64,000 nt of DNA from Clostridia bacterium (GTDB lineage Bacteria > Bacillota > DAOUPZ01). The position numbers and the translations under genes are program-made. The notes below the pieces were generated by a model that saw only the letters and a list, made by a program, of their open reading frames with translations, made no database searches and had not been told where the DNA came from. The stretch covers positions 116,623-180,622 of the forward strand of contig DAOUPZ010000004.1 in the NCBI GenBank assembly GCA_030625885.1, in the 5' to 3' direction. Below, in pieces: positions 41,807 through 60,082 of the stretch. Each line of letters opens with the position of its first letter. The stretch's first letter is position 1.

Positions 41807-44437
41807 TCATCCTCTCAATAACTTATGAGCTAATGCCATCTCTTCTTTTTTCGTTTTTACATGACCATCTAGCTTAGCTAATTTTATCTGCCATAAAACT
41901 TCTCGGAATTGCGGTCCCGGTTCAAAACCAGCACGAATTAAATCTCTTCCCGAAATCTCAGACTTAATAAACCGTAGATTGTTTATAAAAACCATCACTC
42001 GCGCTTTCAAACACGCGTTCCTACTTTTTACGATCAAAAAAGCCAACACTTCTAATGGTATATCATAAAACTCTTGATATAAATGGCTATTGGGTATCTT
42101 CTCTGTCTGACTCAGATAGACCCCTTTTTCCTGCCATATCTTAAAAGCCAATATCAATTTATCGCCAAGTTCTAGGGGAAGATGAAGGCGCTTCATATTT
42201 TCTCTTACTTCTTCATGCCCTATTTTATGGAGTAAAACCATAAGATAAAGCTGCCATACCCAAACCTTATCTTCCCCTAATTCTTCAATCAGCGTAGGTA
42301 ATAACTTTTCCAAATAATAAAGTGTTTCTAAAATTTCAAGATCTAGTTGTACAGAAGGAAAGAAAAATCCGAGAACATTCAGTTCTGACAAACGAATAAT
42401 GACTCGAGGTACATGGTTCTCTTTTAAAAGGCGTATCAATTCATCTCGAGCACGTTCCAATTTTAAATCACGGAGCACACCTGTATCTAAAGCACTTTTA
42501 ATATAATGAAGCGTTTGAGGCCCAATGGTAAACCCATATCGTTGTTCATACCTAACAGCACGGAAAATCCGCGTCGGATCCTCCACAAAACTTAAATTAT
42601 AAAGCACACGTATGATACCTTCTTTTAAATCTTTTATACCATTAAAAAAGTCCCACAATCGCCCAAAGTTGTCTTGACTCAATTCAATGGCCAGCGCATT
42701 AACTGTAAAATCACGTCGGTACAAGTCCTGTCTTAATTTGACTTCTCCTGCTTCTACCGTCGGCAAAGCTGCTGGATATTCATAGTATTCCTGACGGGCA
42801 CTGGCAATATCCAGCCGTAACCCACTTTGCAAAATGACCTTTGCTGTTTTAAAACGGTCGTAAACGCTCAAGGTTCCTTGAAAATGTTCAGCAACAAGGC
42901 GGGCAAATCGTTCTCCCTCTCCTTCAACCACAATATCGATATCCAGATTAGGTACACCCAGCAGCAAGTCACGTACAAATCCCCCGACAATATAGATTGA
43001 AAAACCATGTTGTGTCCCCAAATGACTCAAAGTAAGCAATAAGTCATATATTCCTTCAGGCAGCTCCGTTTGCATCTTTTCCTTCACATTTATATCTAGT
43101 TTATGAGTCCCCTCAGTAAAGGTTAATGATCGACGCTGTGAATAATTTGCACCATGCCACGTCTCCAAAACATTGGTCCGGGTCACGATACCTACAATTT
43201 TACCGTCTTCAATCACTGGCAGGCGCCCAATATCGCTATGCGTCATCAGACGCTGTATTTCTCCCAATGAAGTTGACGGTTTGATATAGACCACTTCTTT
43301 GGTCATAAAACCCTTTACAGGAGCATGTCCCAGGCCATGGTAAAGGGCTTTATCCATATCGCGCCGCGAAATAATGCCCACCAATTTACCATGATCCACA
43401 ACGGGTAATCCCGTATGTCCGTGACGCAATAATATCTTAAAAGCTTCTTCTATCGGGATATTCGATGGAACCGTCTTAACAGGGCATGACATGATTTGAC
43501 TGGCAACATATTCAGGTTTCACCTCTTTCTGAAGAACTTTACGAAGCTGAGCAACCACATCATCTAATCCTTGTTCACTATCTTTAAAACTGGCAGAGGC
43601 TGCTTTCTTGTGTCCCCCGCCGCCAAAACGTTCCATCACTTTCCCAACATCTACAGAATCAATTTTACTCCGTCCAATTAATTGGAAGCGTTCACCCATC
43701 TTCACAACAACCATCATCAAAGCCTCATTCTCAATTTCGCCTAAATGATAGGTCAAAAGGCTTAATCCCGGTACAAATTCCTCCGTCTCGGCTGTTGCCA
43801 GCAGAACATCCACTTCATTAATTGATATATTTTGTGCATCCTGTAATAGTTTGCTTAAAACTTGCTTTTGCATCATCGACAAGGGCCGATCCAGGAACTC
43901 GCCAACAATATCTAAGTTTGCACCTATTTCTAACAAGTAAGTCACCGCTGCTGCATCATGAACAGTTGTGGTGGGAAAAAGCAAATTACCCGTATCTTCA
44001 TAAATGCCGAGCATAAAAAGAGTGGCTTCTAAAGGCGTTATTCCCAAACCCTGCTTCCGGATCAAATTCACCAGCAACGTTGTGACTGCACCCACATTTT
44101 CTACAATAACAAAATCTCCGGAAATATCATCTGCCAAAACCGGATGGTGGTCATATACACATATCTGAATATCTTCTTTATCAAGAAGTGCCGCTATTTT
44201 ATCCAATCGATCTGGCGATTTAGTGTCTACTATTATAATCTTATGAACATCTTCTAGTAGAACCTGTGCTAATGGTTTAACATCAATCGTATCTTTATAA
44301 ATAGATAAAAAATCATGGACATTATGATTCACATGACCGCTAAAAACCAATTGTGCCTCAGGGTGGAGTTTCTGTGCTGCTACCATTGAAGCAAAACCAT
44401 CAAAATCTAGGTTAATATGGCTTGTAATAATCTCCAC
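41807..44437 (-). CDS. Multidomain DHH/DHHA1 + tandem CBS + poly(A) polymerase/CCA-adding nucleotidyltransferase protein
   Basis: N-terminal DHH phosphoesterase motif (INLDFDG), two CBS domains, and nucleotidyltransferase head IYIVGGFVRDLLLGVPNLDIDIVVEG. Confidence 0.75.
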   Translation of the reverse strand: MEIITSHINLDFDGFASMVAAQKLHPEAQLVFSGHVNHNVHDFLSIYKDTIDVKPLAQVLLEDVHKIIIVDTKSPDRLDKIAALLDKEDIQICVYDHHPVLADDISGDFVIVENVGAVTTLLVNLIRKQGLGITPLEATLFMLGIYEDTGNLLFPTTTVHDAAAVTYLLEIGANLDIVGEFLDRPLSMMQKQVLSKLLQDAQNISINEVDVLLATAETEEFVPGLSLLTYHLGEIENEALMMVVVKMGERFQLIGRSKIDSVDVGKVMERFGGGGHKKAASASFKDSEQGLDDVVAQLRKVLQKEVKPEYVASQIMSCPVKTVPSNIPIEEAFKILLRHGHTGLPVVDHGKLVGIISRRDMDKALYHGLGHAPVKGFMTKEVVYIKPSTSLGEIQRLMTHSDIGRLPVIEDGKIVGIVTRTNVLETWHGANYSQRRSLTFTEGTHKLDINVKEKMQTELPEGIYDLLLTLSHLGTQHGFSIYIVGGFVRDLLLGVPNLDIDIVVEGEGERFARLVAEHFQGTLSVYDRFKTAKVILQSGLRLDIASARQEYYEYPAALPTVEAGEVKLRQDLYRRDFTVNALAIELSQDNFGRLWDFFNGIKDLKEGIIRVLYNLSFVEDPTRIFRAVRYEQRYGFTIGPQTLHYIKSALDTGVLRDLKLERARDELIRLLKENHVPRVIIRLSELNVLGFFFPSVQLDLEILETLYYLEKLLPTLIEELGEDKVWVWQLYLMVLLHKIGHEEVRENMKRLHLPLELGDKLILAFKIWQEKGVYLSQTEKIPNSHLYQEFYDIPLEVLAFLIVKSRNACLKARVMVFINNLRFIKSEISGRDLIRAGFEPGPQFREVLWQIKLAKLDGHVKTKKEEMALAHKLLRG

Positions 44438-45136: not shown

Positions 45137-45892
45137 CTAAAACCCTTCCGCTTTTATTGCTGCTATAAATCGATTTGCGTTTGCCTTCTTTCTACAGGTT
45201 TCGCATTTTTTAATGTCAATATCATCTCCAAGCTTTTGGTATAGATAGGCTATTTCCTCTTCAGTCGCAAAATATTTTCCACACGCTTTGCATTGAACCA
45301 TTTTAAATGTTTTGCCCCAAATGGCCCGTGTTCCATTCTCCTCTAAATATTCAATCGCATTCGTCGGACAAACAGATGCGCAGGCACCACACCCAATACA
45401 AGGCTCAGACGGTTCGTCAAAAGGTGTACCCACTTTCTTTGCCGCCCCTCTAAAAACAGTATAAATCGCATTCGTCCCCATTGTCTCACAGGCCTTCACA
45501 CAAAGTCCGCATAACGTACATTTGTTTTCAGTATCCACTTTGCATCTATTAAACTCACGTACATCCTGTTGTTCCATCAGTTTCCTGATCATTTCACTAT
45601 TAGGCGCCATGGTATAATATAATTTTAGCAAGGTTTTTCTAATACGACGCAGTTTTTCATTATCCGTTACCACTTCTATTTCGCTTTGAATGGGATACGA
45701 ACAGGAAGCAACCCGTTTTGTAACGCCATTTTCAACAATTTCCACCATGCACAAGCGACAGGTTGCCAGACCGGGCAGCGCTTCAGAGTGACACAAAGTA
45801 GGAATATAAACATCATTTCGTTTGGCTGCTTCCAAAATGGTTTCACCATATTGTGCCTCTACCTTTTTCCCATCAATAATGATTTCCATCAT
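45137..45892 (-). CDS. NuoG/HndD-N-terminal-like iron-sulfur subunit ([2Fe-2S] + [4Fe-4S] clusters, C-terminal CxxC..CxxC), copy A
   Basis: 2Fe-2S ferredoxin motif CHSEALPGLATCRLCMVEI...C; His/Cys cluster CKVDTENKCTLCGLCVKAC; CIGCGACASVCP; no catalytic domain. Confidence 0.75.
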   Translation of the reverse strand: MMEIIIDGKKVEAQYGETILEAAKRNDVYIPTLCHSEALPGLATCRLCMVEIVENGVTKRVASCSYPIQSEIEVVTDNEKLRRIRKTLLKLYYTMAPNSEMIRKLMEQQDVREFNRCKVDTENKCTLCGLCVKACETMGTNAIYTVFRGAAKKVGTPFDEPSEPCIGCGACASVCPTNAIEYLEENGTRAIWGKTFKMVQCKACGKYFATEEEIAYLYQKLGDDIDIKKCETCRKKANANRFIAAIKAEGF

Positions 45893-45903
45893 GCTTCCCC
45901 CTT

Positions 45904-47742
45904 TTATTTCACTCTAACCGCATGAAACTGACAGTTATCCATACAAATACCGCATTTTGTACATTTTCCCTGATCTATAACGTGAAGTTGTTTTTTATCC
46001 CCTGAAATAGCGCCTACAGGACAACGCTTGGCACATACCGCACAACCCACACAAATCTTGGAATCAATATAGAACGCCGTCAAATCCTTACAAACCCCAG
46101 CCGGGCACCTCTTATTCTTAATATGTTCTTCAAATTCTACTCTAAAGTTTGCAATATTCGAAAGAACCGGATTGGGTGCTGATTTACCCAAAGCACAAAG
46201 GGAAGCTTCTTGAACCATTTGCCCAATTTCTACTAACAAATCAATATCGCCTTCTTGGCCTCTGCCTTCACAAATATCGGTCAAGATTTCCAACATCGTT
46301 TTAATCCCCTGCCGACAGGGCACACATTTCCCACAAGATTCTTCTGAGAGAAATTTCAAATAATACCGGGCAAATTCGACCATACAGGTCCGGTCATCAA
46401 CCACAATCATCCCACCCGAACCCATCATAGAACCTTCAGCAGTCAACGAATCAAAATCTACGGGTAAATCCAGCTTAGCTTCCGGAATACAGCCGCCGGA
46501 AGGACCGCCTGTCTGCACAGCCTTAAACTTTCGCCCCTTCGGAATTCCGCCGCCAATCTCAAAAATAATCTCCCGCAAAGTCGTCCCCATCGGTACTTCA
46601 ACTAAACCCGTATTATTGACCTTACCAACCAGCGCAAATACCTTGGTCCCGGGACTGTTTTCTGTCCCAATACTTCGAAAATAATCGGCACCCTTGTTAA
46701 TAATCACGGGTACATTTGTCCAAGTTTCGACATTGTTAATGACAGTAGGCTTCCCCCATAAACCCTTATCTGCAGGATAAGGCGGTTTAGGCACCGGTTC
46801 ACCAGTATTCCCCTCTATTGACCGTATCAGCGACATTTCCTCACCACAAACAAAGGCGCCGCCCCCTCTAACAATTTCAACATCAAACGAAAAGCCCGTA
46901 CCCAAAATATGTTCCCCTAAGAATCCCCTTTCACGCGCAGCAACAATCGCTCGCTTCATATTTTCCACGGCTAATCCATATTCATCACGAATATACAGGA
47001 ACCCATGATCGACCCCTATCGCATAACCACAGATGACCATTCCTTCCAATACCGCGTGTCCATCTCCCTCCAATACCGCTCGGTCCATAAACGCACCCGG
47101 GTCTCCTTCATCACCGTTGCAAATAACATATTTACATGTCCCTTCTGCTTGAGCCGCAAAAGACCATTTCAAACCGGTAGGAAATCCGCCGCCCCCTCTG
47201 CCGCGCAATCCTGATTTCTTGACTTCCTCAATAACTTCTGACCGCGTCATATCTTTTAATGCTTTTTCCAAAGCTTTGTAACCATCTCGCTCCAGATACT
47301 CGTCAATCTTACCCGGATCAATCAAACCTACATGACGCAAGGCAACTTTTTTCTGTTTACGATAGAATGTCCACTCATCGCGTTTAACCAGCTTCTTCTT
47401 TTGAATCTTATCCGTATATAATAACCGTTCTACCACTTCGCCCTTTAGAACAGTTTTTTCTATGATTTCCGATACATCTTCTACTTTCACTTTTATATAC
47501 GTGATATCATGAGGCAGAATGGTAACTAGCGGTCCATGCTCACAAAGGCCGTGGCAGCCTGTTGCTTTAATAGCAGGTGATGATTCTTTATCGCACTCAC
47601 ATTCAACCGTCATCGCCACTTCAACATTTAAGTAGCTTCCAGCTATATGCTTTTTAAAAGCTTCATAAACTTGCATGCTGTTATTTGCGATACAACCCGG
47701 ACCACAACAAACTAAAATCGTTAATCGTTTGCTACTTTGCAT
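45904..47742 (-). CDS. NuoF/HndC-like NAD(H)-binding flavoprotein subunit (N-terminal thioredoxin-like 2Fe-2S, FMN/NADH site, C-terminal 2x[4Fe-4S]), copy A
   Basis: GLRGRGGGGFPTGLKWSF NADH/FMN motif; N-terminal CCGPGC...C; C-terminal CVGCAVCAKRCP and CTKCGICMDNC ferredoxin motifs. Confidence 0.85.
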   Translation of the reverse strand: MQSSKRLTILVCCGPGCIANNSMQVYEAFKKHIAGSYLNVEVAMTVECECDKESSPAIKATGCHGLCEHGPLVTILPHDITYIKVKVEDVSEIIEKTVLKGEVVERLLYTDKIQKKKLVKRDEWTFYRKQKKVALRHVGLIDPGKIDEYLERDGYKALEKALKDMTRSEVIEEVKKSGLRGRGGGGFPTGLKWSFAAQAEGTCKYVICNGDEGDPGAFMDRAVLEGDGHAVLEGMVICGYAIGVDHGFLYIRDEYGLAVENMKRAIVAARERGFLGEHILGTGFSFDVEIVRGGGAFVCGEEMSLIRSIEGNTGEPVPKPPYPADKGLWGKPTVINNVETWTNVPVIINKGADYFRSIGTENSPGTKVFALVGKVNNTGLVEVPMGTTLREIIFEIGGGIPKGRKFKAVQTGGPSGGCIPEAKLDLPVDFDSLTAEGSMMGSGGMIVVDDRTCMVEFARYYLKFLSEESCGKCVPCRQGIKTMLEILTDICEGRGQEGDIDLLVEIGQMVQEASLCALGKSAPNPVLSNIANFRVEFEEHIKNKRCPAGVCKDLTAFYIDSKICVGCAVCAKRCPVGAISGDKKQLHVIDQGKCTKCGICMDNCQFHAVRVK

Positions 47743-48220
47743 CGACCATCCCTCCCTCTCTATATGATTCTAGAACCGCTCTTAATTTAGCAGGTGTCAA
47801 TTTCCCATAATACGATTCATTAATCATCATTACGGGGGCCAACGCACAGGAACCAATACAGTTAACAATTTCTAGAGAAAACTTTCCATCTGCAGTAGTC
47901 TGACCAGGATCAATCCCCAAAACGGCTTTAATCTCCGTAATTAAATTCATAGAACCTTTAATATGACAGGCTGTACCATCACAAACTTTAATAATATTTT
48001 CCCCCTTGGGTGTTAAACTAAAGGCTTTATAGAAAGTAACCACGCCATATACTTTAGTTAAAGGAACATCAAGATACTCACTTACCACTTCCAAGGATTG
48101 TTTGGGCAAATACTTGTATTTCCTTTGGATATCCTGCAATACGGCTAACAAAAAACGGGGTTCAGGCTTGTAAGTAGAAGCAACAACTAATGTTTCCTGT
48201 TTAATTTGTGATAAATCCAT
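47732..48220 (-). CDS. NuoE/HndA-like [2Fe-2S] thioredoxin-fold subunit, copy A
   Basis: CDGTACHIKGS...CIGSCALAP 2Fe-2S motif of the 24-kDa subunit family; start at MDLSQIK with GAGGGAGG RBS. Confidence 0.8.
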   Translation of the reverse strand: MDLSQIKQETLVVASTYKPEPRFLLAVLQDIQRKYKYLPKQSLEVVSEYLDVPLTKVYGVVTFYKAFSLTPKGENIIKVCDGTACHIKGSMNLITEIKAVLGIDPGQTTADGKFSLEIVNCIGSCALAPVMMINESYYGKLTPAKLRAVLESYREGGMVDAK

Positions 48221-48244
48221 CCTCTCAACCTCCCTCATTCATTT

Positions 48245-48400
48245 GGGTAAGTGGTAAGTAGGAAAAAGGTAAGTAAAAAATATAAAAAGCTAATAATTTT
48301 CAAAATAATAAAACTGTATAAGCTAACACTTTGTATATTATAAAAAATGTAAAAATAGACCGGCTTATTACATACCACTTACCACTTACCACTTACCTTA
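48245..48400. repeat. Intergenic word-repeat element (ggtaagtggtaagtaggaaaaaggtaagtaaaaa ... ccacttaccacttaccacttacc)
   Basis: Opposite-orientation copies of the (cttacca)n word flank an AT-rich segment between the AOR and NuoE-like genes of copy A; the same word occurs at 54985-55000 in copy B. Confidence 0.65.
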
Positions 48401-48423
48401 TTTTATGCTTTCTATAAATTAAG

Positions 48424-48455
48424 AAAAAGGAGAAGGAGCTCAGCTCCTTCTCCTT
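48424..48455 (-). terminator. Rho-independent terminator-like hairpin between AOR and NuoE-like genes, copy A
   Basis: ggagaaggagctgagctccttctcc perfect palindrome followed on the minus strand by ttttcttaatttat, 45 nt after the AOR stop. Confidence 0.55.
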
Positions 48456-48498
48456 TTCCCACTTTACTTATAAGCAGCTAATTTATCTTAACTTTTCA

Positions 48499-50361
48499 TT
48501 AATTATTCTTAGCTGAAGCCGCTTCTACAGCCCCTAGCATTTGTGCAAAAGCATCCTCTAAACCAAGCTCGACCATCTTATCTTTAGTGGGAACACCCGC
48601 TTGATCCCAACCTCGAAGTTGATAATATTCAGGAAGCATTTCATGTAAGCGGTTAACGCTGCCTTTATAGGAACCATTTTTTTGCGGCTCTTGCAAAAGT
48701 CTCTGTGGCAATGTATCGTCTTTACTTGTAAAGCCACACGCCATGTTAAATAACCGTTCTAAATTCCAAATTCTTTCCCCCGCTTTGAGTAATTCATCTG
48801 GACTATATTCAATACCCGTTGCTGCCGATACAACATTAGCAATAATATCAGCGCCAATTGCAAACGTTGTAAATAAACAGAAACCCGAAGCATCTACTGC
48901 GCCAGTCAAATCCTGGAATGCTTTACAGACACCTGCTTTTCCTTCTGTTACTGCCGGATCTAACTTCACGGGAATACCCAAAATTTCCGGAGCTGTCATA
49001 TACCCGCGCACATGGCAGCCACCACGATTATTGGTAGCATAATTTAAACCCATTCCCTGAAGTGTTCTGGGTTCATAAGCGGGCAATTCCTGTTTCTTAA
49101 CACTCATGGATAATTCCGGATGACCGTATTTCTCCGCTAAGCGATAAGAACCTTCCGCCAGTATATCACCAATATCTTCCCGGTAAGCCGTCTTAGTTAC
49201 CAAATCAGCTAAGATGCTCGCATTGCCAAACCTTAAATCACATCCGGCATCTTCGTTCGGCAGATAGCCGTTTTCATAAAGCTCCATGGCACAGGCTATC
49301 GTACAAGGCATGGAAATCGCATCCAATCCCAACTCATTGCAACGGAAGTTGGCTTGGCAAATCGCATCAATATCCTTGACACCACAGTCCGCACCAAAAC
49401 CCCAGCCTGCTTCATATTCGGGACCTTCTCCAAATCCTGCATATGGCTTGAATGTTCTGGTTACCCGACCACAACGCATCACACAGGAAAAGCAGCCTTT
49501 ATTACGCACCAAATTCTTATGTTCAATCATAAATTCACCACTGGTTTTATCTGCCCATTCTACCGTACCGGAATCACGGAAGTTACGTACCGGCAACCCA
49601 CCAGACTGATCTAAAATATTAATTAAAATTTGCGTACCATAAGTTGCTAAACCTGTACCCGTAACAGGATGTTCTAACAAAGCTTTTCGTGCTTCTTGGA
49701 TCGCTGCCATAAATTTTTCCCCATCAGGAACATGAACGGGATTCGTACCACGTACAACAATTCCCTTTAAATTTTTAGAACCCATAACCGCACCAACCCC
49801 AGTACGACCCGCTGCCCGATTCATTTCATTCATAATACAAGCTATTTTAGAAAGATTTTCCCCCCCAGGGCCAATACAAGCTACTTTAGCCATCTCATCC
49901 GTTTCTTCTTTTAACAGATCTGTTGTATCAGGTACTTCTTTGCCCCAGATATGATCTGCCGGACGAATTTCTACCTTGTCATTATTAATCCAGATATACA
50001 CTGGTTTTTCTGCTTTTCCTTCAATAACAACCACATCATAACCCGCATATTTCATTTCACTGCCAAAATACCCGCCGGAATTGGAACAAGCAATGGTCCC
50101 CGTAAGTGGTCCCCGCGTAATCACCATATATCGCCCGGCAGAAGGTGCCATGGTGCCTGTAAGCGGTCCTGTCACTAAATACATATTATTATCAGGACTT
50201 AAAGGATCGACGTTAGGACCTACTTCTTCGCAATACATTTTCGTCCCAAGTCCACGACCCCCAATAAAATCTTTCGCATATTTGGTATTTAATGGTTCCA
50301 TACTCGCTGTACCATTTGTCAAATTAACCCTTAAAATCTTATTTTGGTAGCTGCTCATCAT
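48499..50361 (-). CDS. Tungsten-type aldehyde:ferredoxin oxidoreductase (AOR family catalytic subunit), copy A
   Basis: 620 aa; AOR N-terminal domain (KILRVNLTNG...YIGGRGLG), pterin/[4Fe-4S]-binding region, C-terminal AOR domains; ~95% identical to copy B. Confidence 0.9.
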   Translation of the reverse strand: MMSSYQNKILRVNLTNGTASMEPLNTKYAKDFIGGRGLGTKMYCEEVGPNVDPLSPDNNMYLVTGPLTGTMAPSAGRYMVITRGPLTGTIACSNSGGYFGSEMKYAGYDVVVIEGKAEKPVYIWINNDKVEIRPADHIWGKEVPDTTDLLKEETDEMAKVACIGPGGENLSKIACIMNEMNRAAGRTGVGAVMGSKNLKGIVVRGTNPVHVPDGEKFMAAIQEARKALLEHPVTGTGLATYGTQILINILDQSGGLPVRNFRDSGTVEWADKTSGEFMIEHKNLVRNKGCFSCVMRCGRVTRTFKPYAGFGEGPEYEAGWGFGADCGVKDIDAICQANFRCNELGLDAISMPCTIACAMELYENGYLPNEDAGCDLRFGNASILADLVTKTAYREDIGDILAEGSYRLAEKYGHPELSMSVKKQELPAYEPRTLQGMGLNYATNNRGGCHVRGYMTAPEILGIPVKLDPAVTEGKAGVCKAFQDLTGAVDASGFCLFTTFAIGADIIANVVSAATGIEYSPDELLKAGERIWNLERLFNMACGFTSKDDTLPQRLLQEPQKNGSYKGSVNRLHEMLPEYYQLRGWDQAGVPTKDKMVELGLEDAFAQMLGAVEAASAKNN

Positions 50362-50364
50362 TGC

Positions 50365-50844
50365 TTATTCCACCTCCTCAAATATTTTTTTGAATTTTTC
50401 GGCATACATCGCTTTCTTAGTCAGCATACCTTTGTCCGCTTCCTTATATTCAATTGCCTCATTGGGGCAGAATTTAACACATTCCGGATCGCCGCCGCAC
50501 AAATCACATTTAATAACGCTTTTTGTTTCACTATCGTAGCTCGCATTACCAAATGGACAGGCACTGATACATAATTTACAACCAATACATTTATCTTTAT
50601 CCCATAAAACACCATTTGCTTCTTCATCACGATGCAGCGCACCTGTCATACAAACTTCGACGCAAGGGGCATCATCACAATGCATACACATCAACGGAAC
50701 ACCTAATCCTAAACGCTCCCAGACTAAAGCATGTACTCTCGACTTATTGGGATTAAATACGCCTTCATGTGCAAAGGAACAAGCGAGCTCACAATTACGA
50801 CAGCTTGCACACTTGCTTGGCTGAACCATTAAAATTTTCGCCAT
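50365..50844 (-). CDS. Polyferredoxin-like 4x[4Fe-4S] electron-transfer subunit (AorA-like), copy A
   Basis: Four CxxCxxCxxxCP-type motifs in 160 aa; stop overlaps the AOR start (translational coupling). Confidence 0.8.
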   Translation of the reverse strand: MAKILMVQPSKCASCRNCELACSFAHEGVFNPNKSRVHALVWERLGLGVPLMCMHCDDAPCVEVCMTGALHRDEEANGVLWDKDKCIGCKLCISACPFGNASYDSETKSVIKCDLCGGDPECVKFCPNEAIEYKEADKGMLTKKAMYAEKFKKIFEEVE

Positions 50845-50853
50845 CACTTCCCC

Positions 50854-51062
50854 GCTTCAATTTGATATTGAAGCAGGTTCCACCTCCTCGTATTATTATT
50901 TATCACCCTACAATGAAGCGCCTTCCTTTTCACCTCCTCAATTATTATTTATTTCAATGCTCCTTTGCACACTGGCAGGTATAAGAATTACTCCTTATGC
51001 CCTATCGCCCTGAATTCCCCCGTTCTTCTTGTGGAACTTCCAGGGTCGGAGATATGATTGCT
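50854..51062 (-). promoter_or_regulatory. Conserved 5' leader of ferredoxin-AOR unit, copy A (hairpin abutting RBS, two GAGGAGGTG motifs, ~100-nt conserved block)
   Basis: gcttcaat ttga tattgaagc hairpin at 50854-50874; the block at 50955-51060 is ~80% identical to 57578-57670 upstream of copy B. Confidence 0.45.
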
Positions 51063-51465
51063 TATACTTATATCATTTCAGACAATCATATATCATAAAT
51101 ATATGAAACTATTTCCTTTATATATACCTCTATTAAGGTGTTTTTAGAATACAATGATTCCCTTAGTTTTTATACGCTATATGATGGCATTAAAGTTTTA
51201 CATTTAGAATTGCCCCATCTTTCCTTCGCTTTTCCTGCAAACCTGCAATGTAAATTCTTGATTGCATGATATGTAGTCGTTTGATAATATCAAATGTTAT
51301 TTATTTATATTTAGTTCAGTTTCATTATATTCCTATCCATTTTATTGTACAAATTCCTCGTATTGTAATTTATATCTATAATATGGATTATAACGCATTT
51401 ATTTAATATTAACTGTTTACACCCTTTACTTTCGCGCTTTATCAATATCTTCCATAAGGAAAATA

Positions 51466-51495
51466 AAAAAAGACCCAAAGCCCTAGGCTTTGAGT
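51466..51495 (-). terminator. Rho-independent terminator after MoaD-like gene
   Basis: Minus strand agactcaaagcctagggctttgggtcttttttt: GC-rich stem plus U-run immediately 3' of the stop. Confidence 0.5.
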
Positions 51496-51774
51496 CTACC
51501 CTCCTGCTACAACAGGGAAAATAGATACTTGATCACTTGCTTGTAATTTTGTATGAATGCCATCTAAATGGGCAACATGCCGCCCATTTACCAATACAAT
51601 GATGAGATTATTCAAATCATCCTCAGTCTCATTAAACACCGCTTCTCTAAATTTCTTCCCATAATGCTGTGAAAGTTGCTGTAATAATGCCTGCAAATCA
51701 TCCGCTGGATCATTCCAGGTTGTTTCCTTTTCTCGGGTAAAATCACGGATATAAGCAAAATATTTAATATTCAT
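51496..51774 (-). CDS. MoaD/ThiS-family small sulfur-carrier-like protein (C-terminal Gly-Gly)
   Basis: 92 aa ending ...SIFPVVAGG; beta-grasp-sized; last gene of Nuo-like unit of copy B; absent from copy A. Confidence 0.5.
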   Translation of the reverse strand: MNIKYFAYIRDFTREKETTWNDPADDLQALLQQLSQHYGKKFREAVFNETEDDLNNLIIVLVNGRHVAHLDGIHTKLQASDQVSIFPVVAGG

Positions 51775-51789
51775 AAGTTCCCTCCCTTT

Positions 51790-51850
51790 TTTCAGCTCTT
51801 AGCAGTTAGCTTTTTCTTTTCCTAACTGCTAACTCCTAACTCCTAACTGC
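51790..51850. repeat. Intergenic word-repeat hairpin (ttagcagttagc...cctaactgctaactcctaactcctaactgc)
   Basis: agcagttag / ctaactgct inverted repeat plus (taactcc)n; same words as 9669-9692 in opposite orientation. Confidence 0.65.
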
Positions 51851-51902
51851 TTCTTTTTTCTTCACTCTTCCAGCAACTAAAGGGAGCGTTCTTTACTCTC
51901 TC

Positions 51903-52673
51903 TCAAATATCCAATTCTGCCTTTAACGCTTCCTTAAATTTTGCCGCATTCCCCTTTTGCTTACACTTTTCACACAATGCCATATCCATATCATTACCAA
52001 TCTTTTGCTTGACATAAGCAATTTCTTGTGCTGTAGCAAAATATTTACCGCATTCCTTACATTGAATCAATTCAAAGGTTTTATCCCAAATGGTTCTTAC
52101 CCCATTTTCTTGAGTCATTTGAATGGCTTCTGTTGGACAAACTGAAGCACATGCTCCGCACCCAATACAAGAATCAGAGGGTTCATCAAAAGGTGTGCCT
52201 ACTTTCTTTTCCGCCCCTCTAAATACAGTAGAAATGGCATTTGTACCCATTTCTTCACAAGCTTTTACGCATAGTCCACACAATACACAATTTTCTGCCA
52301 AATGTGTTTCCCCTTTATTAACCTGCAAGCGTTTTATTTCCGGTACATCATACTTTTCTTTTAACGCCTTAATATCTTTATTATGAGGGACACGCGCACT
52401 ATATAAATTGAGCAGCACATTTCTTGTTCTTCGTATGGTCTCATTATCAGTGGTAACTTCCATACCTTCATGAACAGGATAAGCACAAGATGCCACCCGC
52501 TTGGTCACACCGTTTTCTTTTACTTCCACCATACAAATCCGGCAGCTTGTAATGCCGGGTAATGCATCCGAATAACATAACGTCGGGATATCAATACCAT
52601 TGCGACGTGCTGCTTGTAAAATCGTTTCACCTTCTTGTACTGCTGCCTTTTTCCCATCAATGATAATTTCCAT
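51903..52673 (-). CDS. NuoG/HndD-N-terminal-like iron-sulfur subunit, copy B
   Basis: Same cysteine architecture as 45137-45892 (CYSDALPGITSCRICMVEV; CVLCGLCVKAC; CIGCGACASVCP; CKECGKY...CEKCKQK) at ~55-60% identity. Confidence 0.75.
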   Translation of the reverse strand: MEIIIDGKKAAVQEGETILQAARRNGIDIPTLCYSDALPGITSCRICMVEVKENGVTKRVASCAYPVHEGMEVTTDNETIRRTRNVLLNLYSARVPHNKDIKALKEKYDVPEIKRLQVNKGETHLAENCVLCGLCVKACEEMGTNAISTVFRGAEKKVGTPFDEPSDSCIGCGACASVCPTEAIQMTQENGVRTIWDKTFELIQCKECGKYFATAQEIAYVKQKIGNDMDMALCEKCKQKGNAAKFKEALKAELDI

Positions 52674-52687
52674 AATCTCCCCTCCTT

Positions 52688-54484
52688 CTATTTTACTTTT
52701 ATTGCATTAAATTTACAACTGTCAATACAAATACCGCATTTTGTACATTTCTCCGAATCAATCACGTGAAGTTGTTTCTTTTCTCCCGAAATAGCGCCTA
52801 CCGGACAGCGTTTAGCGCATAAGGTACATCCTTTACAGGCTTCTGCATCAACATAAAACTCTGTTAAATCCTTACAAACCCCCGCCGGGCATCTCTTATT
52901 CTTAATATGCTCTTCAAACTCTTCCCTAAAGTTCTCGATATTTGAAATAACAGGATTAGCCGCTGTTTTCCCTAATGCACAAAGGGATGACTCTTGAATC
53001 GCTTCTCCCATTTCTAATAATAAATCAATATCGCCTTCTTGGCCTCGACCTTCACAAATATCACCTAATATTTCCAGCATTCTCTTAATACCTTCACGGC
53101 AGGGGGCACATTTTCCGCAAGATTCCCCATAAAGAAATTGCATATAGAAACGAGCTACTTCGACCATACAAGTCCGATCATCCATAACAACCAACCCACC
53201 AGAACCCATCATGGAACCTTCTGCTGTCAAGGAATCAAAATCAACCGGTAAGTCTAATTTAGATTCTGGAATACATCCCCCGGAAGGCCCGCCTGTTTGT
53301 ACGGCTTTAAATTTTCTGCCACCGGGAATACCTCCGCCAATATCAAAAATAAGTTCTCTTAAAGTAATCCCCATCGGTACTTCTACCAGACCTGTATTTG
53401 CAATTTTACCAACCAGTGCAAAAACCTTGGTCCCCGGACTGTTTTCCGTACCAATAGAACGGAACCAATCTGCTCCTTTATTGATAATAAGCGGTACATT
53501 GGACCATGTTTCTACATTATTGATAATGGTAGGTTTACCCCATAACCCTTTATCTGCTGGGAATGGCGGCTTCTGAACCGGTTCACCCGTCTTCCCTTCT
53601 ATCGAAGCGATCAACGCTGTTTCTTCCCCACAAACAAAAGCCCCGCCGCCTCTAACAATCTCGGCATCAAAGGAAAATTCCGTCCCCAAAATGTTTTCGC
53701 CTAAGAAGCCTCTTTTTTTGGCCGCTTCGATTGCTTTTTTCATGTTCTTAACAGCCAATCCATATTCATCCCGAACATAGAGAAAACCACGATTAGCACC
53801 AATAGCATAGGCACATATAGCCATTCCTTCTAAAACAGTATGTGGATCACCTTCTAATACTGAGCGATCCATAAATGCGCCCGGGTCTCCTTCGTCAGCA
53901 TTACAAATAACATATTTAGGTGACCCCTCTGCCTTAGCAGCAAACGACCATTTCAAGCCAGTCAAAAATCCACCACCGCCCCTGCCACGCAGTTTGGAAT
54001 GCTTCATTTCATCAATCACTTCTTGAGGTTTCATGTTCTTCAAAACCTTTGCAATGGCTTTGTAGCCGTCTCTTTCAATATAATCATCAATACTTTCGTT
54101 ATCAATATGTCCTACATTGCGCAACGCTAAACGCATCTGCTTTTTATCAAACGTCCAATCTTCTTTAGACTGAACTTTTGCTTTTTGCTGTGCATCAAAA
54201 TATAAAAGACGATCAATTACTTCATTATTAGTAATACTTTTTGCAATAATCTCCGGAACATCGGAATCTTTGACATGAACATAGGTAATCTGCTGAGGGA
54301 GAATATGTACGAGCGGCCCTTTTTGACAAAGTCCATGACAACCTGTTCCCTTAACATCCGGGATCAGCTCTACATCTAACTCTAGCGCTTTTAATTGTTC
54401 TTTAAATGCATCATAGATCTTCTGACTGCCATTTGCCAAACAACCCGTACCACAGCAAACCAGAATCGTTTTTTTACTTTCCAT
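52688..54484 (-). CDS. NuoF/HndC-like NAD(H)-binding flavoprotein subunit, copy B
   Basis: GLRGRGGGGFLTGLKWSF; N-terminal CCGTGC; C-terminal tandem ferredoxin motifs; ~80% identical to copy A. Confidence 0.85.
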   Translation of the reverse strand: MESKKTILVCCGTGCLANGSQKIYDAFKEQLKALELDVELIPDVKGTGCHGLCQKGPLVHILPQQITYVHVKDSDVPEIIAKSITNNEVIDRLLYFDAQQKAKVQSKEDWTFDKKQMRLALRNVGHIDNESIDDYIERDGYKAIAKVLKNMKPQEVIDEMKHSKLRGRGGGGFLTGLKWSFAAKAEGSPKYVICNADEGDPGAFMDRSVLEGDPHTVLEGMAICAYAIGANRGFLYVRDEYGLAVKNMKKAIEAAKKRGFLGENILGTEFSFDAEIVRGGGAFVCGEETALIASIEGKTGEPVQKPPFPADKGLWGKPTIINNVETWSNVPLIINKGADWFRSIGTENSPGTKVFALVGKIANTGLVEVPMGITLRELIFDIGGGIPGGRKFKAVQTGGPSGGCIPESKLDLPVDFDSLTAEGSMMGSGGLVVMDDRTCMVEVARFYMQFLYGESCGKCAPCREGIKRMLEILGDICEGRGQEGDIDLLLEMGEAIQESSLCALGKTAANPVISNIENFREEFEEHIKNKRCPAGVCKDLTEFYVDAEACKGCTLCAKRCPVGAISGEKKQLHVIDSEKCTKCGICIDSCKFNAIKVK

Positions 54485-54959
54485 GGTTCTCCCCTCCTCT
54501 ATAACGATTGATAATTTCTCTCAATGAAGCTGGTGTTAAATTACCATGATATTCATCATTAATTACAACAACGGGTGCTAATCCACAAGCGCCCACACAA
54601 CCAACGGTTTCTAATGAAAATTTACCATCTTCGCTCGTCTCACCCGGCTCTATTCCAAGAATATCTTTTACTTCTTGTATCAAATTCATAGAACCTTTAA
54701 CATGACAGGCTGTGCCGTCGCATACTTTAATAATATTCTCACCTTTGGGTTTTAAACTTAACGCTTTATAAAAAGTAGCAACACTATAAACTTTTGTCAG
54801 TTCCACCCCAACATACTCCGCAACAATCACCAAAGATTCTTTAGGTAAATAATTATATTTTCTTTGCACATCCTGTAGTATGGCTAATATGAATCGCCGT
54901 TCAGGCTTGTAACTAGAAGCAATCGCCAACGTTTCCTGTTTAACCTGTGATAAATCCAT
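54474..54959 (-). CDS. NuoE/HndA-like [2Fe-2S] subunit, copy B
   Basis: CDGTACHVKGS...CVGACGLAP; ~85% identical to copy A. Confidence 0.8.
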   Translation of the reverse strand: MDLSQVKQETLAIASSYKPERRFILAILQDVQRKYNYLPKESLVIVAEYVGVELTKVYSVATFYKALSLKPKGENIIKVCDGTACHVKGSMNLIQEVKDILGIEPGETSEDGKFSLETVGCVGACGLAPVVVINDEYHGNLTPASLREIINRYRGGENHGK

Positions 54960-55002
54960 CCCTCAACCTCCCTCATTCATTTTGGTAAGTGGTAAGTGGG
55001 AA

Positions 55003-55036
55003 AAAGGAGAAGGAGCTCATCTCCTTCTCCTTTTTC
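55003..55036 (-). terminator. Terminator-like hairpin between AOR and NuoE-like genes, copy B
   Basis: ggagaaggagctcatctccttctcc with flanking A/T runs; same position as the hairpin in copy A. Confidence 0.5.
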
Positions 55037-55075
55037 CACTTTACTTATAAGCAGCTAATTTATCTCAACTTCTCA

Positions 55076-56938
55076 TTAATTATTTTGAGCCGCAGCCGCT
55101 TCTACAGCCCCTAGCATTTGTGCAAAAGCATCCTCTAAACCAAGCTCGACCATCTTATCTTTAGTGGGAACACCCGCTTCAGTCCAACCACGCAATTCAT
55201 AATACTCTGGAAGCATTTCATGTAAACGGTTGACGCTGCCTTTATAGGGACCAAATTTTTGCGGCTCTTGCAAAAGTCTCTGTGGCAATGTATCATCTTT
55301 ACCCGTAAAGCCACACGCCATATTAAATAACCGTTCTAAATTCCAAATTCTTTCCCCCGCTTTGAGTAATTCATCTGGACTATATTCAATACCTGTTGCT
55401 GCCGATACAACATTAGCAATAATATCAGCACCAATAGCAAACGTTGTAAATAAGCAAAAACCCGAAGCATCTACTGCACCAGTTAAATCCTGGAACGTTT
55501 TACAGACACCTGCTTTTCCTTCTGTTACTGCTGGATCTAATTTCACCGGAAGACCCAAAATTTCAGGGGAAGTCATATACCCGCGCACATGACAGCCGCC
55601 ACGGTTATTGGTAGCATAATTTAAACCCATCCCTTGAAGTGTTCTCGGTTCATAAGCCGGCAATTCCTGTTTCTTAACGCTCATCGATAATTCCGGATGA
55701 CCGTATTTCTCCGCTAAGCGATAAGAACCTTCCGCCAGCATATCACCAATACCTTCCCGGTAAGCCGTCTTAGTTACTAAATCAGCTAAAATACTGGCAT
55801 TGCCAAAGCTTAAATCACATCCCGCATCTTCTTTAGGCAAATACCCGTTTTCATAAAGTTCCATGGCACAAGCAATGGTACAAGGCATGGAAATCGCATC
55901 CAATCCCAACTCATTGCAACGGAAGTTAGCTTGGCAAATTGCATCGATATCATCAACATCACAATCGGCACCAAAACCCCAGCCTGCTTCATATTCAGGC
56001 CCTTCACCAAATCCAGCATATGGTTTATAGGTTTTAGTCACTCGACCGCAACGCATCACGCAGGAGAAGCAGCCTTTATTACGCACCAGATTCTTATGTT
56101 CAATCATAAATTCACCACTGGTTTTATCCGCCCATTCTACCGTACCGGAATCACGGAAATTGTGGACAGGCAGCCCACCAGACTGATTTAAAATATTAAT
56201 CAAAATTTGCGTTCCGTATGTTGGAAGACCTGTTCCTGTAACAGGATGTTCAGCCAATACTTTACGCGCTTCTTCGATCGCTGCCATAAATCTTTCCCCA
56301 TCAGGAACATGAACGGGATTCGTACCACGTACAACAATTCCCTTTAAATTTTTAGAACCCATAACCGCACCAACACCTGTACGACCTGCCGCTCGATTCA
56401 TTTCATTCATAATACAAGCTATTTTAGAAAGGTTTTCCCCCGCTGGGCCGATACAAGCTACTTTAGCCATCTCGTCCGTTTCTTCTTTTAACAGATCTGT
56501 TGTATCGGGTACTTCTTTGCCCCAGATATGATCTGCTGGATGAATTTCTACCTTGTCATTATTAATCCAGATATACACTGGTTTTTCCGCTTTTCCTTCA
56601 ATAACAACCACATCATAACCCGCATATTTCATTTCACTGCCAAAATACCCGCCGGAATTAGAACAAGCAATGGTCCCCGTAAGTGGTCCCCGCGTAATCA
56701 CCATATATCGCCCGGCAGAAGGTGCCATGGTGCCTGTAAGCGGTCCTGTCACTAAATACATATTATTATCAGGGCTTAATGGATCGACGTTGGTTCCTAC
56801 TTCTTCATAATACATTTTCGTCCCAAGTCCACGACCACCGATGTAGTCCTTAGCATATGATTCATTTAAAGGTTCCGTACTGACTTTACCCGTTGTCAAG
56901 TTAATTCTTAAGACTTTATTTTGGAAACTGTTAGCCAT
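55076..56938 (-). CDS. Tungsten-type aldehyde:ferredoxin oxidoreductase (AOR family), copy B
   Basis: Start placed at [14 protein letters not shown], overlapping the ferredoxin stop as in copy A; long stretches identical at nucleotide level to copy A (e.g. 55090-55178 vs 48513-48600). Confidence 0.9.
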
Positions 56939-56939
56939 C

Positions 56940-57419
56940 TTATTCCACCTCCTCAAATACTTTTTTGAATTTTTCCGCATACATGGCTTTCTTGGCCATC
57001 ACGCCTTCATTTGCTTCCTTATATTCAATCGCCTGATTAGGACAAATCCTCACACATTGTGGATCCCCACCGCATAAATCACATTTGATAACCTGTTTTG
57101 TTTCATTATCATAACTGGCATTACCAAAAGGACAGGCACTAACGCATAATTTACAACCGATACATTTGTTTTTATCCCATAAGACACCATTTGCTTCTTC
57201 ATCACGATGCAATGCCCCCGTTGGGCAAACCCCGGCACACGGAGCATCATCACAATGCATACACATCAATGGAACACCTAATCCTAAGCGTTCCCAAACC
57301 AATGCATGTACTCTTGATTTATTGGGATTAAATACACCTTCATGTGCAAAGGAACAAGCCAGTTCACAGTTACGGCAACTAGCGCATTTATCCGGATGAA
57401 TCATTAAAATTTTTGCCAT
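56940..57419 (-). CDS. Polyferredoxin-like 4x[4Fe-4S] subunit (AorA-like), copy B
   Basis: 160 aa, ~92% identical to 50365-50844. Confidence 0.8.
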
Positions 57420-57428
57420 CACTTTCCT

Positions 57429-57670
57429 GCTTCAACTTTAAATAAATGGCACATCTACTTTAAGTTGAAAGCAGGTTTCACCTCCTCTATATTATTTTTT
57501 TAGGAAAAGCCGATACTTACCCTTTCACCCCCTCAATCATATTCATCTCATTTTTCATTTCTATCATGGCTCTTTTGCACATTGGCAGATATAAAAATTG
57601 CTTTTTATACCCTATCGCCTGGAAATTCACACTTTGTGTGGAATTTCTAGGTTCAGAGATATGATTATGT
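57429..57670 (-). promoter_or_regulatory. Conserved 5' leader of ferredoxin-AOR unit, copy B
   Basis: Imperfect hairpin cttcaacttta...tttaagttgaag next to the RBS; GAGGAGGTG motifs; conserved block with near-palindrome cctggaaattcacac ttt gtgtggaatttctagg. Confidence 0.45.
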
Positions 57671-57871
57671 TGTACCATGTGATGCGAATTATTTTGATAT
57701 TATCAAACTAAGTTTTATATTTATTTAATTTATTTTTATTATATCAACTGATGTTTTATTAATCCAACTTTTTTATCTCTTAATTATTAAGTTTAATACC
57801 TAATAAGGCAATTTTTCTTACCCTTGCTCTTTATATATCTTTTTTTCATGTTTTTTCATTTAAAATAAAAA

Positions 57872-57905
57872 AAGACCCTTTTTAAAACCAGGGTCTTCTT
57901 CCACA
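57872..57905 (-). terminator. Rho-independent terminator after ECF S-component gene
   Basis: gaccct ttttaaaac cagggtc hairpin followed by a U-run on the minus strand. Confidence 0.45.
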
Positions 57906-57909
57906 ATCA

Positions 57910-58755: not shown

Positions 58756-58924
58756 ATAAGCATAGTTTGCTAATGTAAAATTAATTTTCATATAATCAAA
58801 CAATCATCTTTATTTAAATATTAAAAAAGGAGGTAAACAAAACACGAGTTAAAATTTTCGTAGTATCCTATGCACAAATATTAATGTGCATAAAATTGAA
58901 ACTAATGATGAGGAGGAGAAAACT

Positions 58925-60082
58925 ATGAAAGAAGAAGTATTTGGTTATTTCATGCCGCCAGTCAGTTTAATGGGTGTTGGTAGTTACAAAAAAATCGGGG
59001 AACAAATTAAAGCCCTCGGAAAATCAAAAGCATTAATCGTTACTGATCAAGGAATTATTAAAGCAGGTGTTGCTAAAAAAGTAACTGACATATTAGACGA
59101 AGCCGATATTAAATACGTTATTTTTGATGGTGCTCAACCTAATCCTACGGTTGGCAATGTAGAAGACGGCCTAAAAGTATTAAAAGATAACGACTGTAAT
59201 GTTGTTATTTCATTAGGTGGCGGCAGTCCACATGACTGTGCTAAAGGGATCGCCCTTGTAGCCACCAATGGCGGCAGTATTAAAGACTATGAAGGATTAG
59301 ACCAATCCCCAAAACTCATGATGCCATTGATTGCTGTTAATACAACTGCTGGTACAGCCAGTGAAATGACCCGGTTTGCAATCATAACCGATACCGACCG
59401 CCATGTTAAAATGGCTATTGTTGACTGGCATACAACACCAACCATTGCCATTAATGATCCTCTTTTAATGATGGGTATGCCTGCCAGTCTGACAGCTGCA
59501 ACTGGTATGGATGCATTAACTCATGCCATTGAAGCTTATGTTTCCACAATCGCAACACCCATTACCGATTCTAATGCAATTGCAGCCATTGAACTAATTT
59601 CCAAATATTTAAGAAGAGCTGTTAAAGACGGTAATGATACGGAAGCTCGTGACAAAATGGCTTATGCTGAATTTCTTGCTGGTATGGCATTCAATAATGC
59701 AAGCTTAGGATATGTTCATGCCATGGCACATCAATTGGGTGGTTTCTATGACCTGCCACATGGTGTATGTAATGCCATTTTATTACCCCACGTTCAAGCT
59801 TACAATGCCAAAGTCGTACCGGAAAGATTTATTGCGATCGCTAAAGCTATGGGCGAAAACGTTGAGAGCTTAAACCCTGAAGAAGCTGCAAAAGTTGCCA
59901 TTGAATCCATTAAGAAACTTTCAAAAGATGTTGATATTCCTGCCGGTGTTAAAGAATTGGGCGCTAAAGAAGAAGATCTTCCAACTCTAGCAAGTAATGC
60001 CTTAAAAGATGCCTGTGGTTTAACCAATCCAAAACAACCTACTAAAGAAGAAGTTATAGAGATTTATCGTCAAGCTATGTAA
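58925..60082 (+). CDS. Iron-containing (group III) alcohol dehydrogenase
   Basis: [14 protein letters not shown]-binding motif and metal-binding histidines ([13 protein letters not shown]); 385 aa from ATG preceded by GAGGAGGAG RBS. Confidence 0.85.

Follow-up and report, generated by a model that had tools for sequence, protein, structure and literature searches.

The P3-less members of the Moco RNA motif have been noted to track genes of the tungsten cofactor (Regulski et al., 2008; PMC2408646). In the same work, a tetraloop receptor in P2 was found to accompany a GAAA loop on P4; RNAs with a GCAA loop were found to lack the receptor, and four such RNAs were noted. In Eubacterium limosum, the operon wor1SLXABC has been reported to stand behind a P3-less riboswitch of Rfam family RF01055 (PMC11725836). 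The gene set of such WorS-WorL-WorABC electron-bifurcating tungsten enzymes has been described (PMC11725836; PMC12318220). The present text concerns a stretch of 64,000 nucleotides (nt) from a Clostridia bacterium (contig DAOUPZ010000004.1, positions 116,623 to 180,622), hereafter the window, with two tandem paralogous operons, A and B, each of which encodes a ferredoxin and a tungsten aldehyde oxidoreductase (AOR). Each operon is preceded by a conserved block in its 5' untranslated region. Each block was identified as an aptamer of the Moco RNA motif (RF01055) of the P3-less, 'Tuco-type' kind, a reading to which a probability of about 0.85 is given. For both aptamers, we infer the ligand to be the tungsten cofactor (tungstopterin, 'Tuco').

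The genes around both aptamers all lie on the minus strand. Leader A occupies 50848-51495 (648 nt) and leader B 57423-57909 (487 nt), which bears out the lengths of about 650 and 490 bp given in an earlier note on this DNA. The two leaders align well at two places only, the block of ~100 nt and the ~60 nt that immediately precede the start codon. The block runs from 50956 to 51055 in A and from 57566 to 57662 in B, and is 75% identical between the copies against 56% in the flanks. The earlier note had described this block at about 80% identity and had placed its low end in copy B ~12 nt short; the block itself is present. It had also been called better conserved than the NuoG-like coding sequence, which holds for that gene (66.5% identity between A and B) but not for the adjacent ferredoxin (83%) and AOR (89%) genes. 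The near-palindrome and the string ctatcgcc that had caught attention were both found in the block. On the coding strand ctatcgcc reads GGCGATAG and corresponds to the aptamer's GGCGAUAG junction; the near-palindrome is real, but it is the P2 stem of an RNA and not a protein site.

The assignment to RF01055 is based on two covariance models. An Rfam scan of the whole window at gathering thresholds returned tRNA only. At E-value thresholds, the RF01055 model ('Molybdenum/Tungsten riboswitch aptamer') matched copy A with 35.5 bits over 50944-51063 of the minus strand (model positions 1-135), with an E-value of 1.2e-6 when the leader was searched by itself and of 1e-4 when the whole window was searched against all 4227 families. 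In this alignment the P3 positions are deleted and the linker between P2 and P4 consists of GAU only. The gathering score of the family is 36 bits, an operational cut-off rather than a structural feature. A P3-less covariance model, R1, was then built from 103 metagenomic aptamers, with the window and the related contigs L066 and L067 excluded (L numbers denote the loci compared). Run over the whole 64-kb window with filters off, R1 gave 63.1 bits for copy A (E 6e-15) and 48.0 bits for copy B (E 7e-11), and no other site in the window exceeded 10.5 bits (E about 1). With RF01055, same-subtype aptamers that precede AOR genes reach 59.2, 49.8, 41.3, 39.3 and 37.8 bits, and the orthologous leader of L067 reaches 35.9 bits. 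These scores straddle the gathering score, and the window copies therefore stand in a continuous series, at its AT-rich and low-scoring end, and are not a chance near-miss. The earlier suggestion of a Moco- or Tuco-sensing riboswitch is therefore supported by the Rfam match to A, by the matches of the P3-less model to A and B, and by the related loci.

Several observations weigh against this identification. In the Rfam scan of both leaders that had been suggested beforehand, copy A fell 0.5 bit under the gathering score and copy B was without any RF01055 match at E<=10. The training sequences of R1 were retrieved with a pattern taken from conserved strings of the window (GATAGGG...CTSCC...GSAAARGAG), so the R1 score is partly circular; three conserved strings stem from the retrieval pattern, and the independent evidence in R1 is limited to the 5' CUCCGA, P1, P2 and P4. 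No demonstration of ligand binding by a Tuco-type RNA was found in the literature consulted. Furthermore, the aptamer is absent from the closest orthologous loci (L001, L002, L068, L191 and L192), and the riboswitch is thus dispensable for this operon type. Two of these loci represent the nearest genomes, metagenome-assembled genomes of Peptococcaceae (L001 and L002), which have the same operon with an AOR 78-79% identical and no aptamer.

The fold of the aptamers can be followed helix by helix. In aptamer A (50956-51055, minus strand), P1 is formed by 51051-51048 with 50963-50960 (CUCC/GGAG), P2 spans 51045-51008, the junction CGAUA lies at 51007-51003, P4 spans 51002-50977 and is capped by a GUAA tetraloop, and P5 pairs 50976-50975 with 50968-50967. 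All of the conserved unpaired strings are carried by A, namely CUCCGA after the start of P1, GAUAGGG before P4, CCUSCC, and GSAAAGGAG closing P1. Aptamer B (57566-57662, minus strand) takes the fold of A in an AT-richer sequence and, by eye, shows every one of its helices. In its P1 (57658-57655 with 57573-57570, CUCU/AGAG), a compensatory exchange replaces C-G of A by U-A; in P4, A-U takes the place of several pairs that are G-C or G-U in A. The deviations of B from the conserved strings are CUCUGA and AAAAGAG, which reflect the compensated change in P1, and UCUGCC, which turns a G-C into a G-U pair at the base of P4. The loop of P4 is GUAA in A and in L067 and GCAA in B, and P2 is a plain hairpin without the CCUAAG...UAUGG receptor. 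A and B fall in a subtype already noted in the literature, with a GYAA loop on P4, a receptor-less P2 and a G-C pair in P5 (CCUGCC...GCAAAGGAG).

Covariation was assessed in two alignments. In a model-guided alignment of 11 subfamily sequences, 90% of the cells are paired as compared with 38-50% with slid partners, double changes are seen at 16 of the 26 pairs, and the observed score was reached by none of 500 shuffles; having been fitted to the structure, this alignment leans towards it. From the alignment of 103 sequences, RNAalifold recovered P1, P2, P4 and P5, with double changes at 18/26 pairs; 91 of these sequences have C-G as the P5 pair and 11 have G-C. The comparison of homologous leaders proposed in the earlier note thus shows helices kept through compensatory changes.

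Further aptamers place the two window copies among their relatives. The contig L066, from the Logan collection, has a leader identical to that of copy B, and the best ferredoxin match in the protein collection (87%) is the copy-B paralogue on a Logan contig. In L067, a contig with a ferredoxin 79% identical and the synteny of copy B, the aptamer has diverged and the fold is kept despite many substitutions. A pattern scan of metagenomes yielded 120 loci, nearly all of them P3-less Moco-type aptamers. Most combine the canonical GAAA loop with a CCUAAG...UAUGG receptor in P2 and with CCUCCC...GGAAAGGAG. The features of the window copies (GYAA loop, plain P2, CCUGCC...GCAAAGGAG) recur in a minority, namely L086, L092, L098, L105, L173, L175 and L180, where the loop of L105 is GUGA. 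Five of these aptamers (L086, L092, L098, L173 and L180) stand directly 5' of proteins of ~585 amino acids (aa) starting MWILR..NMTDR, which, to judge from the sequence, appear to be AOR; that of L175 stands 5' of a ferredoxin-like open reading frame (ORF) at the contig end. An Rfam scan of 19 orthologous AOR loci at the gathering threshold gave no Moco match. When R1 was run over 71 AOR-related loci, one further aptamer was found, at 2311-2404 of L008 (Candidatus Clostridium radicumherbarum; 53.8 bits), before a ferredoxin-AOR-MoaD-NuoE-NuoF operon; it is missed at the Rfam threshold. P3-less, receptor-less members of the family appear to be systematically under-called by this threshold. Since it misses A, B and L008, AT-rich Tuco-type riboswitches before tungsten enzymes have probably been under-counted, and a P3-less sub-model recovers such copies cleanly.

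The direction of control is suggested by the relatives. In L008, L180, L098, L092, L173, L086 and L105, the aptamer is followed by a long hairpin and a U-run, and the 5' arm of the hairpin starts at the aptamer's AAAGGAG. This string comprises the junction and the 3' strand of P1, and five or six of the seven terminator-bearing aptamers precede oxidoreductase genes. A terminator that takes up the P1 3' strand cannot coexist with P1, which is the design of an ON switch with read-through when the cofactor is present. No intrinsic terminator was found between the aptamer and the start codon of leader A or leader B, and a U-tract is also absent; the only terminator nearby, at 51471-51497, belongs to the upstream MoaD-like gene.

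The window leaders are arranged in the order aptamer, first GAGGAGGUG, C/U-rich element, second GAGGAGGUG, hairpin and AUG. On the DNA, GAGGAGGTG occurs in leader A at 50881-50889 and 50931-50939, with a spacing of 50 nt, and in leader B as an exact copy at 57479-57487 and a one-mismatch copy, GAGGGGGTG, at 57526-57534. Five exact copies are present in the window, where 0.31 would be expected by chance, and the remaining two are the AOR ribosome-binding sites. Two copies of this motif had been reported before at a distance of about 60 nt; both exist, although they are 50 nt apart in A and one of those in B is mismatched. In leader A, no start codon follows the upstream copy (SD#1, 50931-50939, minus strand), and it is proposed to mimic both the true Shine-Dalgarno and the P1 3' strand. 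In the minimum-energy fold of A, SD#1 is paired with the P1 5' strand AUCUCC, which is the proposed OFF state. The downstream copy (SD#2, 50881-50889, minus strand) is the strong Shine-Dalgarno of the ferredoxin (WorS) gene A, with a hairpin between it and the AUG. Folds and duplex energies point to CGCUUC (50915-50920, minus strand) as a candidate anti-Shine-Dalgarno, with a duplex energy of -11.5 kcal/mol with SD#2 and -7.4 kcal/mol with SD#1.

Leader B is built in the same order on the minus strand. Sequence, folds and duplex energies identify an SD#1-like copy, GAGGGGGUG, at 57526-57534, and a motif match places SD#2, the strong Shine-Dalgarno of ferredoxin gene B, at 57479-57487. The putative anti-Shine-Dalgarno of B, CGGCUUUUCC (57503-57512), is conserved in L067, where the first copy reads AGGGGGUG. 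P1 is extended 5' by AAUCAUAU, and a sequence exactly complementary to it, AUAUGAUU, stands just 5' of the SD#1-like copy of B. Two sets of relay pairings were evaluated in A, B and L067. In one, the P1 5' strand has as its partner either the P1 3' strand or the first GGAGG region; in the other, the C/U-rich element pairs with either GGAGG copy. All of these duplexes lie between -6.4 and -11.5 kcal/mol.

On these grounds, it is about an even bet that the window leaders act as translational ON switches by way of a decoy Shine-Dalgarno copy. With ligand, P1 (CUCC/GGAG) would hold, the upstream GAGGAGGUG would pair with CGCUUC or CGGCUUUUCC, and the true Shine-Dalgarno would be free. Without ligand, the P1 5' strand would pair with the upstream copy or the adjoining sequence, and the anti-Shine-Dalgarno would close the true site. 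The aptamer presumably links the synthesis of the apo-enzyme to the supply of its cofactor. Activation is favoured because, in same-subtype relatives, the P1 3' strand serves as the 5' arm of a terminator, such that a cofactor-stabilised P1 would prevent termination. It is held at no more than even odds because of a null result in folding and because an opposite relay is possible. When P1 was forced or blocked in equilibrium folding, the accessibility of the true Shine-Dalgarno or of the AUG was unchanged; over three settings of P1 folding, the probability that the true Shine-Dalgarno is unpaired is 0.15/0.16/0.15 in A, 0.42/0.45/0.42 in B and 0.31/0.30/0.32 in L067.

The energies allow the opposite relay equally well: were the P1 3' strand to pair with the C/U-rich element in the absence of ligand, an OFF switch would result. 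Bound cofactor would then hold P1 in place, so that the C/U-rich element could block the true Shine-Dalgarno, and without cofactor this element would be taken up by the P1 3' strand or by the upstream GAGGAGGUG. The pairing of the P1 3' strand with the C/U-rich element amounts to -7.4 kcal/mol in A and -8.5 kcal/mol in B, but is weak in L067 (-3.8 kcal/mol). Most Moco RNAs are repressing (PMC2408646), and the E. limosum WOR1 leader has been reported to contain a sequestor of the ribosome-binding site and an anti-sequestor that overlaps a 5' helix of the riboswitch, a layout that usually implies repression (PMC11725836). Against this stand the seven same-subtype aptamers with their ON-type terminators, and it would make little physiological sense to repress a cofactor-consuming apo-enzyme when cofactor is plentiful. 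Repression of the window operons is accordingly regarded as possible but doubtful.

Three other candidates for a part in these leaders were set aside. A leader peptide after the upstream GAGGAGGTG has no ATG, GTG or TTG at a usable distance in A, B or L067. An anti-sequestor pairing of the 3' flank of P1 (AUUGAA in A) with the 5' arm of the hairpin at the ribosome-binding site is found in A only and is conserved neither in B nor in L067. The complementarity of 7 nt between the P2 5' arm and the GUGGAAC tail of SD#2 is likewise restricted to A.

The hairpins beside the start codons that the earlier note had pointed out were confirmed with RNAfold. That of leader A lies at 50851-50877 (minus strand, -16.1 kcal/mol; ATG 50844-50842), and the longer one of leader B at 57426-57475 (minus strand, -23.8 kcal/mol; ATG 57419-57417). 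The same arrangement was found in 10 loci (window A and B, L001, L002, L008, L067, L068, L189, L191 and L192) and consists of GGRGGUG, 2-4 nt, a hairpin of ~10-12 bp (longer in copy B), 7-10 nt and AUG. The sequence of the stem varies across the 10 loci, and pairing and spacing are kept. The distance from Shine-Dalgarno to AUG is 33-56 nt, mostly 35-37, and closure of the hairpin would leave about 10-14 nt. A proximal Shine-Dalgarno is absent from L001, L189 and L191, and some other loci have a weak proximal AGGA or GGGA. Six of the 10 loci (L001, L002, L068, L189, L191 and L192) are without the aptamer, so the hairpin is not by itself the expression platform of the riboswitch. Split (discontinuous) ribosome-binding sites bridged by a hairpin are known from phage T4 gene 38, which the window leaders appear to resemble in combining a strong, distant Shine-Dalgarno with a stable hairpin between it and the AUG. 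To judge from the sequences, the arrangement looks like a hairpin-bridged split ribosome-binding site that would be constitutive in this ferredoxin gene family. Alternatively, the hairpin might occlude initiation or stabilise the mRNA.

A broader proposal is put forward tentatively, with the odds against it. The receptor-less aptamers with a GYAA loop and a G-C P5, which mostly precede tungsten AOR genes, may form a functionally distinct, activating Tuco set, in which the ancestral antiterminator would have been rebuilt into a translational relay in AT-rich, Peptococcaceae-like genomes. In such a rebuilt relay, the decoy Shine-Dalgarno copy would work together with the hairpin-bridged split ribosome-binding site. 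If this is true, the apo-enzyme would be made only when the cofactor is available.

Could one or both aptamers, chiefly B, be decaying relics, with control exerted only by an IclR-type operator and the Shine-Dalgarno-hairpin-AUG element? Copy B is the one that Rfam leaves unmatched, and it deviates at several highly conserved positions, with CUCU for CUCC, GAACC for GACCC, UCUGCC for CCUGCC and AAAAGAG for AAAGGAG. The closest relatives manage without the aptamer, and neither a terminator nor a clear ligand-dependent occlusion was found in the window leaders. The deviations of B within its helices are, on the other hand, all compensated or of the G-U/A-U kind, and no helix is broken. B still scores 48 bits with the P3-less model, the orthologous aptamer of L067 keeps its fold through many substitutions, and the identity of the block between A and B stands well clear of that of its flanks (75% against 56%). 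Decay is therefore considered unlikely.

That the block is a DNA site, with its near-palindrome bound by a dimeric factor (IclR-family or molybdate/tungstate-responsive) and RNA structure irrelevant, is very improbable: copy B does contain a near-perfect inverted repeat of 15+15 nt and genes for an IclR-family and a FIST-domain protein are nearby (60501-61274 and 61400-62551), but the repeat differs among A, B and L067 and is unrelated in L173, L180, L086, L098 and L008 while its pairing is kept, the invariant bases are unpaired junctions that match the RNA family (CUCCGA, CGAUAGGG and GCAAAGGAG), and the block-less loci L001, L002, L068 and L191 conserve a different palindrome, TTTGATAATATCAAA, which is a better candidate operator.

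A promoter-proximal palindrome, TTTGATAWTATCAAA, is present in both window leaders and is separate from the riboswitch. In leader A it lies at 51280-51294, 29 nt 3' of a TATAAT box that forms part of a promoter-like site of operon A (51324-51351, minus strand; TGTACA-16-TATAAT, 10/12), identified as a consensus match only. In leader B it lies at 57693-57707, 30 nt 3' of TGaTATAAT (57746-57738) and ~30 nt 5' of aptamer B. The window contains two exact copies, both in these leaders, and three copies at two mismatches or fewer, where 0.76 would be expected. Exact copies were found in seven leaders of six loci (window A/B, L001, L002, L068, L191 and L192). The spacing of 29-30 nt after the conserved GATATAAT box was measured in A, B and L001, and the same box is present in L002, L068, L191 and L192. 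A sigma-54 (-24/-12) promoter in CTGCCAGTGTGCAAAGG was rejected by eye, the order and spacing of its elements being wrong on both strands.

The regulator gene close to the operons encodes an IclR-family protein of 257 aa (60501-61274, minus strand) and is paired with a gene for a FIST-domain sensor protein of 383 aa (61400-62551, minus strand). In L001 and L068, the IclR and FIST pair stands directly 5' of the oxidoreductase operon; in L191 an IclR gene is also found upstream, and L002 has ORFs that match IclR and FIST by size alone. To judge from its sequence and setting, TTTGATAWTATCAAA is a candidate operator, and the adjacent IclR-family regulator probably acts through it. Binding of the IclR-family protein to this palindrome would add a separate, transcriptional layer of control. 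The option of a dedicated regulator raised in the earlier note survives in this form, with a likely site that falls outside the region the note had marked. A copy of the palindrome with two mismatches was also seen at 58786-58800, ~90 nt upstream of a gene for an iron-type alcohol dehydrogenase (58886-60082, plus strand), a hint of co-regulation. In leader A, an AT-rich stretch of ~215 nt (51064-51279, minus strand) separates the palindrome from the aptamer, where leader B has ~30 nt; no match to an RNA family or model and no obvious ORF accounting for this stretch was found.

The genes served by the two leaders were assigned with Pfam domains (AFOR_N/AFOR_C, Fer4 and NuoE/F/G-like). Operon A (45137-50847, minus strand) has five genes, the products of which are a 4x[4Fe-4S] poly-ferredoxin of 160 aa (WorS-like), a tungsten AOR of 620 aa (WorL-like), and NuoE-like, NuoF-like and NuoG N-terminal-like proteins. 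Operon B (51496-57422, minus strand) has the same five gene types and a MoaD/ThiS-like gene (51496-51774). The best match of the AOR in the PDB is 9mqx_D (E 8e-244), followed by the Pyrococcus AOR 1aor (1aor_A). Judged from their gene content, both operons probably encode electron-bifurcating tungsten aldehyde oxidoreductases of the WorS-WorL-WorABC type. The ferredoxin and AOR genes are far closer between the operons than the NuoE/F/G-like genes (66-72% nucleotide identity), a pattern that suggests gene conversion or a mosaic duplication.

In both operons, the intergenic stretch between the AOR and NuoE-like genes (48403-48483 and 54983-55049) gave weak matches to an unrelated microRNA model, and the model matches suggest a conserved hairpin at this place. 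Expression of WorSL has been reported to be roughly threefold above that of WorABC (PMC12318220), and the intergenic hairpin might be related to this difference. Directly 3' of operon A, a gene at 41807-44437 (minus strand) encodes a protein of 876 aa that joins DHH/DHHA1 and two CBS domains to a poly(A) polymerase/CCA-adding head, an unusual fusion.

With this locus, the coupling of bifurcating WorSL-ABC aldehyde oxidoreductases to cofactor supply through an RNA sensor extends to a second lineage. The terminators of the relatives also lead to a prediction for the family, in which cofactor-using genes would be switched ON and genes of transport and biosynthesis OFF. With the Moco RNA motif (RF01055; PMC2408646), the window aptamers share the P1-P2-P4-P5 architecture, the CUCCGA, GAUAGGG and AAAGGAG junctions and a GNRA loop on P4. 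They differ from RF01055 in scoring under its gathering threshold, in a receptor-less P2, in a GUAA or GCAA loop, and in a first P5 pair that is G-C instead of C-G; their platform has neither a Shine-Dalgarno embedded in P1 nor a terminator. Like the P3-less Tuco class, they have no P3 and stand upstream of a gene for a tungsten-cofactor enzyme.

A close counterpart is wor1SLXABC of E. limosum (PMC11725836). It is alike in operon type (a small Fe-S subunit, a tungsten AOR and a NuoE/F/G-like module), in a P3-less RF01055 leader that is terminator-less, and in a hairpin at the ribosome-binding site, with control predicted to be translational. The window differs in having two tandem paralogous operons with one aptamer each, and its leaders contain the duplicated GAGGAGGUG and an IclR-type palindrome, where a CcpA-like site is reported for E. 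limosum.

Both aptamers are ordinary additions to a known family. Their gene context has been published before, for another organism, and the understanding of the family is unchanged in principle. ON riboswitches with a terminator that overlaps P1 are exemplified by the adenine riboswitch of B. subtilis pbuE/ydhL. The seven terminator-bearing relatives resemble this type, as the 5' arm of their terminator is the P1 3' strand, whereas the window leaders keep only a C/U-rich element where the 3' arm of the terminator would be. This platform, with its duplicated Shine-Dalgarno, is unusual.

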